Assembly (NCBI RefSeq): GCF_050920415.1
Contig: NZ_CP169309.1
Length of the DNA: 64,000 nucleotides
Source of the DNA: Escherichia coli
GTDB taxonomy: Bacteria > Pseudomonadota > Gammaproteobacteria > Enterobacterales > Enterobacteriaceae
Strand: one strand, 5' to 3'
Part shown: piece after piece, positions 5,636 through 7,306 of the stretch
How the letters are laid out: the number at the start of each line of letters is the position of its first letter
Numbering within the stretch: the first letter of the stretch is position 1
Notes under the pieces: generated by a model
The model's database searches: none
What the model was told of the DNA's origin: nothing
What the model saw: only the letters and a program-made list of their open reading frames with translations
Made by a program: the position numbers and the translations under genes

Positions 5636-6343
5636 ATGGATTTGAATAAATTCGATGAGCCATTCAGCCCTGAAGATATCGAATGGCGAATACAGCAAAG
5701 CGGTAAAACACGCGATGGCAAAGTGTGGGCTATGGTGCTGGCTTATGTCACGAACCGGGCAATCATGAAACGCCTGGACGATGTTTGCGGCAAAGCAGGA
5801 TGGCGCAATGAATACCGCGATATTCCCAACAACGGCGGCGTTGAATGCGGCATATCAATAAAGATTGATTCCGAATGGGTAACCAAATGGGATGCTGCTG
5901 AAAACACGCAGGTAGAAGCCGTCAAAGGTGGTCGTTCCGGTGCAATGAAGCGCGCTGCCGTTCAGTGGGGAATCGGTCGGTATCTGTATAACCTTGAGGA
6001 AGGTTTCGCACAAACATCTCCCGATAAAAAGCAGGGGTGGCACAGGGCAAAACTGAAGGATGGAACAGGATTTTACTGGCTCCCTCCATCGCTGCCGGGA
6101 TGGGCAATCCCAGCATCAGATAACAAACCATCACCAGAAAATACCAACCAGAAATCTCCATCGGTTGACTGCGAACAAATCCTGAAAGACTTCAGCGATT
6201 ATGCATCAACAGAAACTGACAAGAAAAAACTCATCGAGCGTTATCAGCGTGACTGGCAATTAATGGCTGGCAACGAGGAGGCGCAGGCTAAATGCGTTCA
6301 GGTAATGAACATCAGAGTTAACGAACTAAAACAGGCGGCATAA
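5636..6343 (+). CDS. Single-strand annealing protein, probably Rad52/Rad22 (Sak-like) family (235 aa)
   Basis: GAGGTG RBS; motif KRAAVQWGIGRYLY; sits in the bet position next to ssb. Confidence 0.5.
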   Translation: MDLNKFDEPFSPEDIEWRIQQSGKTRDGKVWAMVLAYVTNRAIMKRLDDVCGKAGWRNEYRDIPNNGGVECGISIKIDSEWVTKWDAAENTQVEAVKGGRSGAMKRAAVQWGIGRYLYNLEEGFAQTSPDKKQGWHRAKLKDGTGFYWLPPSLPGWAIPASDNKPSPENTNQKSPSVDCEQILKDFSDYASTETDKKKLIERYQRDWQLMAGNEEAQAKCVQVMNIRVNELKQAA

Positions 6344-6817
6344 ATGGCAAGCAGAGGCGTAAATAAGGTGATCATTATTGGTCGCCTTGGGCATGATCCA
6401 GAAATCAGATATTCACCATCAGGAACGGCATTTGCAAACCTTACAGTTGCTACGTCAGAACAATGGCGTGATAAGCAAACTGGAGAGCAAAAGGAGCAGA
6501 CGGAGTGGCACCGTGTGGTAATGAGCGGGAAACTGGCAGAAATTGCCAGCGAATATCTGCGAAAAGGCTCTGAGGTTTATCTTGAAGGCAAATTGCGGAC
6601 AAGAAAATGGCAGGATCAAAGCGGACAGGATCGGTTCACTACCGAAGTTATCGTAGGCGTTGGTGGAACCATGCAAATGCTTGGTGGCAAGCAAGGAGGC
6701 AATGAACAGTCTTCACCTCAGCGAAATAACGGTCAGCAACAAAGACAGCAATCTCAGCAGCAAGGGAATCACAGCGAACCACCTATGAACTTCGACGATT
6801 CGGATATTCCGTTCTAG
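6344..6817 (+). CDS. ssb: Single-stranded DNA-binding protein (157 aa)
   Basis: OB-fold SSB N-terminus ([18 protein letters not shown]), Gln/Gly-rich linker, C-terminal acidic DDSDIPF tail. Confidence 0.9.
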
Positions 6818-6826
6818 GAGCTGAAT

Positions 6827-7306
6827 ATGAAAATCTGCTCAAGATGCCATCAACAGAAGGAAGAAAGGGACTTTCAAATCAGAAGAGCATCCAGAGATGG
6901 ATTAACTGCCGCTTGCCGGGCTTGCCTGGCTGAATATGACAAAGAGCGCGCGGGATTGCCACATCGAGTATCAGCAAGGAGAGAATATCAATCATCGGAA
7001 CGCGGCAGAGAACGGTGTAACGCAGCCAAAAAGCGGTTCATTCAGAGCAACCCATGGAAAAGAAAAGCCCACATCATCGTGGGTAATTTTTTGCGCGACG
7101 GTAAGCTAATCCGACCACCACAATGTGAGTGCTGCGGATCAGAATGTAAACCACAGGCGCACCACTGCGACTACAGCAAACCAACCGATGTGATGTGGCT
7201 CTGCAAGTCATGTCATGTCGAGTGGCACAAACATAACAAACCTATCTACCCAGACGAGGAGCCAGTAACTCTCCCCTTCCCTCGTCACGCTATTCACGCA
7301 ATTTAA
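6827..7306 (+). CDS. Cys-rich HNH-type endonuclease-like protein (159 aa)
   Basis: Two CxxC pairs and HH...N...H pattern (AHHCDYSKP...WLCKSCHVEWHK). Confidence 0.45.
   Translation: MKICSRCHQQKEERDFQIRRASRDGLTAACRACLAEYDKERAGLPHRVSARREYQSSERGRERCNAAKKRFIQSNPWKRKAHIIVGNFLRDGKLIRPPQCECCGSECKPQAHHCDYSKPTDVMWLCKSCHVEWHKHNKPIYPDEEPVTLPFPRHAIHAI

Follow-up and report, generated by a model that had tools for sequence, protein, structure and literature searches.

The region analysed here is, with good confidence, the recombination module in the pL operon of a lambdoid prophage, essentially identical to genes 28 to 25 of Shigella phage Sf6. It should belong to the P22 type, which depends on Abc2, and not to the lambda Red type, and its HNH gene most likely lies outside the recombination pathway as a free-standing homing-endonuclease gene. 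In the window (the whole stretch of 64,000 nucleotides of Escherichia coli DNA that was analysed), three consecutive ORFs lie on the plus strand at exactly 5636-6343, 6344-6817 and 6827-7306. These ORFs, their neighbours and two segments within them are listed below.

5113-5244, plus strand: cIII homologue (phrog_550, 1.6e-20; 100% identical to Sf6 gp32), the upstream boundary of the module and not a recombination gene
5229-5381, plus strand: kil homologue (phrog_2055, 6.9e-35), not a recombination gene
5378-5536, plus strand: small acidic ORF like Sf6 gp30 and HK97 gp42.1 (phrog_2123, 5e-41), in the position of P22 arf
5457-5627, plus strand: small ORF like Sf6 gp29 and HK97 gp42 (phrog_1723, 9.4e-36), overlapping 5378-5536 in another frame
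5636-6343, plus strand: predicted single-strand annealing protein (annealase), 235 aa, with a Rad52_Rad22 core (residues 4-136) and an Erf-type C-terminal domain
6344-6817, plus strand: phage SSB, 157 aa, with an OB fold, a Gln-rich linker and the canonical acidic tip ...NFDDSDIPF
6788-6814, plus strand: end of ssb that encodes the tip, with a sequence changed from that of HNH-less alleles (comparison with phage HZ41)
6827-7306, plus strand: probable His-Me finger (HNH) endonuclease, 159 aa (phrog_2340 'endonuclease', 2.6e-47)
7262-7303, plus strand: disordered C-terminal tail of the HNH protein, PVTLPFPRHAIHAI (pLDDT 69 over residues 141-150, then 49 over 151-159)
7320-7613, plus strand: abc2, anti-RecBCD protein 2, 97 aa (PF11043), following the HNH gene after a gap of 13 nt

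The identity to Sf6 was 97.5% across the region (megablast), and the annealase, SSB, HNH protein and Abc2 were 99.1, 99.4, 100 and 98.0% identical to gp28, gp27, gp26 and gp25, respectively. The annotation of Sf6 (Casjens et al. 2004; NC_005344) gives the same order, cIII-kil-gp30-gp29-annealase-SSB-endonuclease-abc2, and a gp33-like gene is also found in the flanks of both. Unlike Sf6, the window prophage has lambda-type int/xis beside a pectinesterase-family gene (12604-13887) and different genes downstream of abc2, and its gp33-like gene is interrupted by an IS3-family element (2891-4200). This element lies between an N-like gene and the module, and pL-driven expression may be lowered by it in this particular prophage. 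The gene order also matches c3-kil-arf-erf-abc1-abc2 of P22 and hkaM-sak4-ssb-abc2 of HK620. At least 80% of 5100-7700 was present in 145 of the 5,426 complete E. coli genomes (about 3%), where PGAP names the genes 'Rad52/Rad22 family DNA repair protein', ssb and 'phage anti-RecBCD protein'. The module is thus already known: the Sf6-type gene set was described previously, and its layout entered a 2025 catalogue under the name 'ES18' type, a combination of anti-RecBCD, SSB, nuclease and annealase found in 25 phages (Genome Res 2025, PMC12315714). The same combination without the nuclease is the 'HK75' type, with 27 phages (PMC12315714). The window combines the four functions that make up the ES18 type. 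Its annealase and ES18 gp49 share 92% identity, whereas gp47, the nuclease of ES18, is an HNH protein unrelated to that of the window.

The preliminary description had seen neither an exonuclease nor a Gam-like RecBCD inhibitor between 5.1 and 11.2 kb. As to the exonuclease it was right. Profile scanning of the flanking ORFs gave no phage-encoded exonuclease among the ORFs of 5.1-11.2 kb (PHROG scans; NCBIfam on ten ORFs), and neither an Exo/RecE-type 5'-3' exonuclease nor a lambda Gam homologue among the ORFs PHROG-scanned over 5.1-11.4 kb. The gp33-like gene (4225-5088) and its intact copy in Sf6 had no Pfam match and fell into PHROGs of unknown function, and no nuclease families were found for 7788-8087, 8089-8982 (Ead/Ea22-like), 9178-10383 (DUF551-type), 10380-10640, 10619-10924 and 10996-11163. 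As to the inhibitor, the claim fell with the ORF at 7320-7613, whose product hit Anti-RecBCD_p2 of Pfam (PF11043) along its full length, the RecC-binding N-terminal helices included (positions 1-97 of 97, E=5.4e-63), and phrog_656 at 7.7e-55. It is identical to P22 Abc2 in 90 of 97 residues (92.8%), and it matches chain A of PDB 8B1T (P22 Abc2 on RecBCD) at 1.7e-57 with Pro68 conserved. A module without a RecBCD-control function is therefore refuted, because abc2 is located immediately downstream. Judged by its sequence, Abc2 is the P22-type counterpart of lambda Gam, and it presumably makes RecBCD serve the phage as a resection nuclease. Since the exonuclease is supplied by Abc2-modified RecBCD in the P22 paradigm (PMC9836394), it need not be supplied by the HNH protein. 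RecC binding and the altered Chi response and recombinase loading are known only for P22 Abc2, and annealase loading by Abc2 is a model only (PMC9836394).

The first gene of the trio had been described as a probable Rad52/Sak-like annealase, and this was borne out by the profile search. Residues 4-136 of the product match positions 7-153 of 153 of the Pfam model Rad52_Rad22 (PF04098) at E=2e-24, and no second Pfam family was found even at E<=10, ERF (PF04404) included. The product also matches phrog_1097 at 1e-129, is 99.1% identical to the HK75 annealase as well, and found no relative among PDB sequences by phmmer. Its C-terminal domain (residues 157-235, nt 6104-6340) is common to P22 Erf: these 79 residues are 63% identical to Erf 134-205 (E=2e-30, BLASTP), while the N-terminal cores were left unaligned. 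By sequence comparison the annealase is a chimera of a Rad52 core and the P22 Erf C-terminal domain, and it is because of this common domain that PHROG and Sf6 label it 'Erf-like'. A strict rule that the Erf-type domain is the docking domain for Abc2-RecBCD was considered and rejected, as the domain and Abc2 occur separately. The domain is also present in Erwinia phage EhrS_49, where Abc2 is not recognisable downstream and whose module type was catalogued without anti-RecBCD (PMC12315714), while HK620 has Abc2 together with a Sak4 that is without the domain. The C-terminal domain alone was uninformative as a query, giving mostly fragments in a word-indexed search and only 17 representatives in an exhaustive one. 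For the small genes upstream, the ORF at 5378-5536 is a possible accessory factor. An experimental basis for the label 'recombinase' on phrog_2123 was looked for and none was found, and the sole likeness of the product to P22 Arf is a 6-of-7 residue motif (SDEEFI, E=0.014). The product of 5457-5627 had no similarity to P22 Arf.

The second gene encodes an SSB of the phage's own with a canonical acidic tail, as described before. The product scored 181.8 bits against TIGR00621 ssb, for which the curated cut-off is 53.95 bits, matched phrog_44 at 2.7e-65, and was 64% identical to E. coli SSB (K-12 sequence). The tip (..D-I-P-F) is the true C-terminus of the window SSB, with the stop codon next, unlike the SSBs of HZ41, HK75 and epsilon34, which run 15 residues beyond it.

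The third gene had been called Cys-rich and HNH endonuclease-like on its sequence, and the family assignment agrees with this. The protein has an N-terminal CxxC..CxxC zinc ribbon, a helical linker and a putative C-terminal nuclease domain of the form CxxC/HH/CxxCH..H. The motif C..C / HH.DY / WLC..CH..WH is conserved across an alignment of 28 homologues (34-88% identical to the query), in which C100, H112, H113, D115, H130 and H134 are invariant and C103 and C126 are at least 90% conserved. No match was obtained in Pfam, NCBIfam or PADLOC, nothing relevant came from the PDB with single-sequence or alignment-built profile searches, and Foldseek against the PDB gave no significant match. No similarity to P22 Abc1 was found either. 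Structural neighbours in BFVD include proteins named 'Recombination endonuclease VII', and endonuclease VII is also the label of PHROGs that were hit by the N-terminal zinc ribbon (phrog_2633, 1.6e-4) and, more strongly, by the homologue in phage ESh4. Residues 1-69 at the N-terminus also weakly match (7.5e-7) a PHROG with the label 'Lar-like restriction alleviation protein'.

The comparison of related phages bears most directly on what this HNH gene is. Phage HZ41 has the ssb allele and abc2 of the window and is without the HNH gene, and the two differ from a point within the last 27 nt of ssb up to CCAGTAACTC. In these tip-coding 27 nt there are seven substitutions and a one-codon indel, compared with only three substitutions in the preceding 148 nt. 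The 3' end of ssb reads ...ATGAACTTCGACGATTCGGATATTCCGTTCTAGGAGCTG... in the window type and ...ATGGATTTTGACGACGATATACCCTTTGCACCAGTAACTC... in the HZ41/HK75 type. HK75, with an annealase 99% and an Abc2 97% identical to those of the window and a different ssb allele (64% identical), also has no HNH gene. A second case is given by the T1-like phage ESh4, which has an HNH homologue of 37% identity (E=3e-22). Its relatives JLBYU09, KarlJaspers and aaroes (93-96% identical to ESh4) lack exactly about 454 bp. The ESh4-type insertion joins ssb immediately behind its Phe codon, and phages with and without the gene have the same terminator next; here the tip-coding DNA is nearly unchanged between ESh4 and JLBYU09 despite the presence or absence of HNH. 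In the compared phage pairs the boundaries of the indel were exact and always at the ssb stop codon. Based on the precise presence and absence, the site after the Phe codon and the rewritten tip-coding sequence, the HNH gene is therefore read as most likely a homing endonuclease gene of the free-standing kind; it looks like a selfish mobile insert and not like the gene for the missing exonuclease. We infer that 6788-6814 is the former target site of the enzyme.

The contexts of the homologues widen this picture. In 11 of 12 of them the gene immediately upstream of HNH encodes a ..D[ILF]PF ending, and this order is independent both of the annealase family (Rad52, ERF and two Sak4 types) and of the family of the upstream protein (phrog_44, 743, 9002 and 4477). 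Elsewhere the slot after ssb holds an unrelated HNH gene (ES18), a DnaQ-like exonuclease gene (epsilon34), both (Bas106) or nothing; sibling modules have a DnaQ-like exonuclease gene between HNH and abc2, and L005 has a further gene, from the HNH_3 family, between the annealase gene and ssb. A more specific proposal, which we advance only tentatively, is that the HNH proteins of phrog_2340 are homing endonucleases recognising the DNA for the near-universal SSB tip (..DDDIPF-stop). With such a target they could enter ssb-type genes that are not homologous to each other, in temperate as well as virulent phages and potentially in plasmids or the host.

A conserved extension after the IPF residues is found on many phage SSBs. 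Where the insertion is of the ESh4 type, the ssb stop codon gives way to the 5' end of the cassette, and the SSB gains a 15-residue peptide that buries the IPF tip, with the consensus A[PS][VI]GL[QP][YF]G.[RK]..I.A[IL], while in Sf6-type insertions, the window included, this peptide is located on the HNH protein. In HZ41, HK75 and epsilon34 the SSB has, after ..DDDIPF, an extension identical to the HNH tail PVTLPFPRHAIHAI, and an SSB with the extension ends in ..DDDIPFAPVTLPFPRHAIHAI, compared with the plain ..DDDIPF. Diverged forms of the peptide occur in T1-like, rV5-like, Vibrio and Cronobacter phages. An earlier explanation, in which the HK75 extension had arisen simply by a deletion that fused the SSB to the HNH tail, was revised after these diverged peptides and the ESh4 evidence. 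The peptide may serve for docking or mark the protein for degradation; its basic-then-hydrophobic C-terminus may resemble ClpX recognition tags. Nothing relevant to the extension peptide came from a literature search.

The module would work as follows. Abc2, by analogy with the 93%-identical P22 protein, would bind RecC of the host RecBCD and block the Chi response and RecA loading. The helicase and nuclease would still be active, and the hijacked RecBCD would therefore resect the ends of the phage DNA. The phage SSB would coat the resulting ssDNA and recruit partner proteins by its acidic tip, and the annealase, whose Erf-type C-terminal domain probably docks a partner, would pair complementary strands for recombination-dependent replication and repair. 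No phage exonuclease would be needed in this Abc2-dependent scheme. The presumed target of the HNH enzyme is the conserved SSB-tip DNA of HNH-less alleles. Repair of the resulting breaks would use the HNH-bearing allele as the template, and the neighbouring recombination genes may help in this; for the HNH enzyme we infer a recognition site, cleavage and gene conversion from the allele comparisons.

Other roles for the HNH protein were weighed against homing. It might be a working component of recombination coupled to SSB, so that annealase, SSB and HNH form a functional triad. Within this triad it might open entry points for Abc2-RecBCD by nicking or cutting DNA, or act on branched annealing intermediates, trimming or resolving them in the manner of T4 endonuclease VII. 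This is the view of PMC12315714, and it agrees with the conserved SSB-then-HNH adjacency, with ORFs often overlapping or abutting, across three annealase families and the virulent T1-like phages, with the endonuclease VII labels of the zinc-ribbon PHROGs and BFVD neighbours, and with the repeated filling of the ssb-abc2 slot by unrelated nucleases. The gene is dispensable, however, as near-identical modules without it exist in HZ41, HK75, JLBYU09 and others. The exact boundaries at the ssb stop codon and the concentration of substitutions in the 27 tip-coding nt of the HNH-bearing allele also speak against such a triad, and the upstream partner of phrog_4477, which is not an SSB and has only the tip in common, fits recognition of tip DNA better. 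We consider a recombination role possible but doubtful. The idea that the HNH protein replaces lambda Exo as the resection nuclease, in a module with no equivalent of RecBCD control or exonuclease, could draw on the lack of lambda Exo, RecE and Gam homologues in 5.1-11.2 kb, but HNH enzymes are endonucleases or nickases and not processive 5'-3' exonucleases. Together with abc2 at 7320-7613 and the common HNH-less versions (the 27 'HK75'-type phages; PMC12315714), this makes the replacement of Exo scarcely credible.

A nuclease for exclusion, anti-defence or defence against competing phages, plasmids or host DNA, with a part in neither recombination nor homing, was also considered. Free-standing phage nucleases can mediate marker exclusion, as in T4, and the weak Lar-like match points the same way. 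That match is limited to the CxxC zinc ribbon, though, no PADLOC match was found for HNH, the annealase, SSB, Abc2 or two downstream ORFs, and the fixed position at ssb 3' ends would be left unexplained, so we regard such a function as improbable. Among the roles first suggested for the HNH protein, supply of the nuclease function thus persists as a weaker rival, anti-defence is dropped for want of a PADLOC match, and homing is favoured by the comparative evidence.

Placed beside known systems, the module has in common with P22 arf-erf-abc1-abc2 the pL-operon position after c3 and kil, the Abc2, the Erf C-terminal domain, the lack of a phage-encoded exonuclease and a presumed reliance on hijacked RecBCD. 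It differs from P22 in its Rad52_Rad22 instead of ERF core and in having no clear Arf homologue and no abc1, whose place is taken by ssb and HNH. HK620 is similar in having a small ORF, an annealase, a phage SSB tail ending in PF and then Abc2, and its SSB tail stimulates annealase-dependent recombineering about tenfold (Hutinet et al. 2018, PMC5928155); in contrast to the window, it has a RecA-like Sak4, a non-canonical SSB and no HNH. With lambda Red (exo-bet-gam), whose Beta is a member of the Rad52-like superfamily (PMC2896510), the genomic location and the overall task are shared. Lambda, however, has its own 5'-3' exonuclease and a Gam that fully blocks RecBCD, whereas the module here has no exonuclease and an Abc2 that would modulate RecBCD. 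Like the free-standing HNH homing endonucleases of phages (T4 MobE and many Certrevirus HEGs), the window HNH is a small intergenic gene by a conserved DNA-metabolism gene, sporadic among close relatives and, in the comparison with HZ41, with polymorphism clustered at the adjacent conserved site. Unlike them, it is tied to a short coding motif (the SSB tip) of non-homologous genes, its homing is deduced from sequence, and in some lineages the neighbouring protein has acquired another C-terminus through the phrog_2340 insertion.

The apparent gap of no exo and no gam is closed by abc2, and overall the finding is ordinary. For use of the cassette in recombineering, abc2 and a recBCD+ host should be included for dsDNA substrates, and HNH should not be presumed necessary. 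The chimeric annealase, the HNH family at the last codon of ssb and the post-IPF extension lead to testable hypotheses on how selfish nucleases may shape recombination modules and alter the SSB tip.

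Three ORFs on the plus strand, which the preliminary description had read as an annealase, an SSB and an HNH protein, were confirmed at their coordinates with assignments far above chance. They belong to a lambdoid prophage whose early-left (pL) arm, oriented in the direction of pL transcription, fills the opening 12.5 kb of the window; the features in this arm and directly after it are:

64-309, minus strand: cro
370-1107: cI-like repressor
1879-2184: N-like antiterminator
2891-4200: IS3-family element, disrupting a gene like Sf6 gene 33
5113-5244: cIII
5229-5381: kil
5378-5536 and 5457-5627: two small overlapping ORFs between kil and the annealase ORF
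5636-6343, plus strand: annealase
6344-6817, plus strand: SSB
6827-7306, plus strand: HNH protein (159 residues, phrog_2340)
7320-7613, plus strand: abc2
downstream of abc2, before xis: Ea-type genes
11203-11421: xis
11399-12469: int (lambda-type integrase)
12604-13887: pectinesterase-family gene (427 residues), marking the bacterial flank of the attachment site

The pectinesterase-family gene is presumably ybhC, the neighbour of lambda attB. Its junction with int (11399-13887), which is also present in the comparison locus L004, places the prophage at a lambda-like attachment site. At most 62% of the window's initial 12.6 kb was covered by any complete E. coli genome in the collection, and the prophage is a mosaic unrepresented among those genomes. 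The IS3-family insertion, which we take to resemble IS629, is 1,310 bp long, with 25-nt terminal inverted repeats, a 3-bp target duplication (ATC), and orfA (3820-4146) and orfB (2933-3820) on the minus strand. It splits the Sf6 gene 33 homologue into a 5' end left of 2890 and a remainder at 4201-5088, and its position, after the N-like gene and ahead of the recombination module, means that it could exert polarity on pL transcription. Elsewhere in the window, a low-GC segment (48001-52000; 0.37-0.42, compared with about 0.50 in the rest) may be another horizontally acquired piece. The two small ORFs before the annealase (Sf6 gp30 and gp29, respectively) overlap in different frames and occupy the position of P22 arf (window 5363-5627). 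The PHROGs label "recombinase" on both has no evident basis; a short motif, SDEEFI, is common to ORF 5378-5536 and P22 Arf (E=0.014).

The annealase was assigned to the Rad52 family (Pfam Rad52_Rad22, E=2e-24, whole model covered), with ERF and RecT absent from the Pfam results even at E<=10, and ORF 6344-6817 to the bacterial-type SSBs (TIGR00621, 181.8 bits against a curated cut-off of 53.95), with the canonical C-terminal tip ..NFDDSDIPF. The annealase is a chimera of a Rad52-type core and the C-terminal domain of P22 Erf: residues 157-235 (window 6104-6340) are 63% identical to that domain (E=2e-30), while the N-terminal cores gave no alignment and fall into separate Pfam families, Rad52_Rad22 for this annealase and ERF for P22 Erf. 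This domain explains the "Erf-like" naming in the Sf6 gp28 annotation and PHROGs, and it was found in 127 phage records, on Rad52-type and ERF-type cores alike. A role as an Abc2-RecBCD adaptor was ruled out as a strict link, the domain and Abc2 not being strictly coupled. An obvious candidate partner is the SSB tip, as the C-terminal domain of Red-beta suggests by analogy. SSB-Beta binding has been cited in a survey of lambdoid phages (PMC12315714).

The preliminary description also held that the 5.1-11.2 kb stretch lacks any Gam-like RecBCD inhibitor, and this was wrong. The 97-residue product of 7320-7613, which begins 13 nt past the HNH stop codon, is Abc2 over its full length (Pfam Anti-RecBCD_p2, E=5.4e-63; phrog_656, 7.7e-55) and matches P22 Abc2 at 90 of 97 residues, Pro68 included. 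The P22 protein has been solved in complex with E. coli RecBCD (8B1T/8B1U), where Pro68 is the residue engaged by PpiB. In P22-type systems, Abc2 fills the functional place of lambda Gam. It has been reported to bind RecC and abolish the Chi response, and was proposed to turn RecBCD into a resection nuclease feeding the phage annealase; phages encoding Abc2 characteristically have no exonuclease of their own (PMC9836394). The absence of an exonuclease, which was borne out when the other flanking ORFs were scanned and no nuclease was found, is the expected state of such a module and not a gap. The original observation was real but incomplete, and its interpretation was wrong on the central point.

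The module is in fact already known. Its region is 97.5% identical in DNA to Shigella phage Sf6, where gene order and neighbours match, and the annealase, SSB, HNH and Abc2 are 99.1, 99.4, 100 and 98.0% identical to Sf6 gp28, gp27, gp26 and gp25. At least 80% of 5100-7700 is present in 145 of 5,426 complete E. coli genomes. The gene order also parallels c3-kil-arf-erf-abc1-abc2 of P22 and hkaM-sak4-ssb-abc2 of HK620. Its functions appear in a 2025 survey of 325 lambdoid phages, where anti-RecBCD, SSB, nuclease and annealase form the "ES18" type (25 phages), and the same functions minus the nuclease the "HK75" type (27 phages), the nucleases named being HNH and DnaQ-like enzymes (PMC12315714). 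The present analysis established gene content and homologies, and the pathway is drawn from work on P22, HK620 and lambda: host RecBCD reprogrammed by Abc2 would resect phage DNA ends, the phage SSB would cover the single strands, and the annealase would pair complementary strands for recombination-dependent replication and repair. Recruitment of the annealase would probably occur through the SSB tip or its own C-terminal domain. In HK620, the phage SSB boosts the annealase about tenfold through its C-terminal ..PPF tail (PMC5928155).

Since the 6827-7306 product had no sequence match in Pfam, NCBIfam or PDB, its HNH label was tested separately. Among 77 homologues found, 28 (34-88% identical to the query) were aligned, giving an N-terminal CxxC..CxxC ribbon and an invariant C-terminal motif, C100-x2-C103 ... 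A-H112-H113-x-D-Y ... W-L-C126-x2-C-H130-x2-W-H134. The AlphaFold model (pLDDT 93) gave 31 matches at E<=1e-3 among predicted viral structures, many of the named ones being HNH or "endonuclease VII". The protein was accepted as a His-Me finger nuclease, scores against solved structures being modest.

Three comparative lines point to the HNH being a mobile, homing-type gene and not the working nuclease of the module. Lambdoid phage HZ41 carries the same ssb allele and abc2 as the window with no HNH, and HK75 likewise lacks it, with an annealase 99% and an Abc2 97% identical to the window's and a different ssb allele (64% identical). A homologue of the same PHROG, 37% identical (E=3e-22), is found in the T1-like phage ESh4, whose relatives JLBYU09, KarlJaspers and aaroes (93-96% DNA identity) are without exactly the corresponding ~454 bp. 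The gene is, judging from these genomes, precisely dispensable in the phages compared. The insertion point is constant, directly 3' of the SSB-tip Phe codon: JLBYU09 ssb ends ...GAC ATT CCT TTC TGA followed by a terminator hairpin, and in ESh4 the cassette separates ...GAC ATC CCT TTT from that same hairpin. The window's cassette, made up of TAG, 9 nt and HNH codons 1-145, is flanked by ...CCG TTC on the left and on the right by CCAGTAACTC, which in HZ41 and HK75 comes after the tip. An SSB-type tip was encoded by the upstream gene in 11 of 12 homologue contexts examined, whatever the annealase family (Rad52, ERF, two Sak4 types) or upstream protein family (phrog_44, 743, 9002, 4477). The HNH start and the upstream stop codon overlap (TAATG) in Pectobacterium phage DU_PP_I, where the upstream product is a 405-residue phrog_4477 protein, not a classical SSB, ending ..DFDLDIPF. 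Furthermore, in the cleanest pair, window and HZ41, the last 27 nt of ssb differ by 7 substitutions and a codon indel and the preceding 148 nt by 3 substitutions, a pattern expected if the HNH-bearing allele has an altered, protected target.

So tight and widespread an SSB-HNH linkage could alternatively mark a working partnership, the enzyme possibly nicking DNA to seed resection or processing branched intermediates in the manner of endonuclease VII. We consider this rather unlikely. Of the roles suggested earlier for the HNH, homing is favoured by the comparisons, and nuclease supply is argued against by dispensability. The two views can both hold, since repair of the breaks left by a homing enzyme would fall to the adjacent recombination genes. 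On balance, the HNH is most plausibly a selfish passenger lodged at the ssb 3' end.

The locus is clearly a hot spot of nuclease gene gain and loss. Between ssb and abc2, ES18 has an unrelated HNH, epsilon34 a DnaQ-like 3'-5' exonuclease (L012:3250-3798) and Bas106 both an HNH and a DnaQ-like exonuclease (L003:3539-4087). Truncated or fused ssb-HNH and HNH-exonuclease ORFs in databases (P0011, P0014, P0024, P0053, P0063) indicate frequent deletions in this slot. The DnaQ-like exonuclease (PF16473, phrog_255) forms a clean cassette between HNH (or ssb) and abc2 in the sibling modules L003, L012, L004 and L006, and is absent from the window. An HNH_3-family gene (PF13392) unrelated to the phrog_2340 HNH separates the annealase gene from ssb in a single E. 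coli prophage (L005:3060-3527) and lies upstream of an ERF gene in a metagenomic phage (L017:1979-2446); recombination modules seem to accumulate homing-type nucleases. In Hafnia and Pantoea prophages with ExoX-Sak4-SSB-HNH modules, phrog_743-type SSBs (L007:3255-3959; L015:2757-3458) end ..DDDIPFN, one residue beyond the canonical Phe. The phrog_4477 proteins of rV5-like and Certrevirus phages (~405-423 residues) end in an acidic tip like that of SSBs, either ..DFDLDIPF or ..DFCDDIPF with the extension, and the gene directly after theirs encodes an endonuclease with the same N-terminal zinc ribbon (L025:316-2182, rV5 gp209/gp208; L008:2784-4441), which suggests that the phrog_4477 proteins are SSB-like hub proteins.

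The last 14 residues of the HNH, PVTLPFPRHAIHAI (nt 7262-7303), fall within the low-confidence end of the AlphaFold model and are identical to a 15-residue extension carried after ..DDDIPF by the HZ41, HK75 and epsilon34 SSBs. This explains the old Sf6 note of "14 contiguous amino acids identical to E. coli SSB". Many phage SSB-type proteins run on past ..DDDIPF into this conserved post-IPF peptide (~15 residues), whose consensus is A[PS][VI]GL[QP][YF]G.[RK]..I.A[IL]. Diverged forms, such as ASVGLQYGKHRIYAL, APVGLQFGKKFMHVI and APIGLPFPRHAIYSL, come after the IPF tip in proteins of T1-like, rV5-like, Vibrio and Cronobacter phages. A 28-residue tip-plus-extension query was matched over at least 80% of its length by 152 phage records. 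Loci with the peptide are:

window 7262-7303; L002:3681-4187; L012:2735-3241; L027:101-616; L024:1078-1575; L025:316-1587; L022:1048-1587; L023:1057-1587

No literature on this peptide was found. In the window and Sf6 it sits on the HNH C-terminus and not on the SSB. In ESh4, it is encoded by the 5' end of the HNH cassette, the HNH start codon lying inside the peptide-coding stretch; thus, at least in the ESh4 lineage, the SSB acquires a new C-terminus from the mobile gene and its tip is buried, which should change SSB partner binding. The finding as posed is of low interest, and the modest testable leads that it offers are the HNH family associated with ssb tips and the peptide after IPF.
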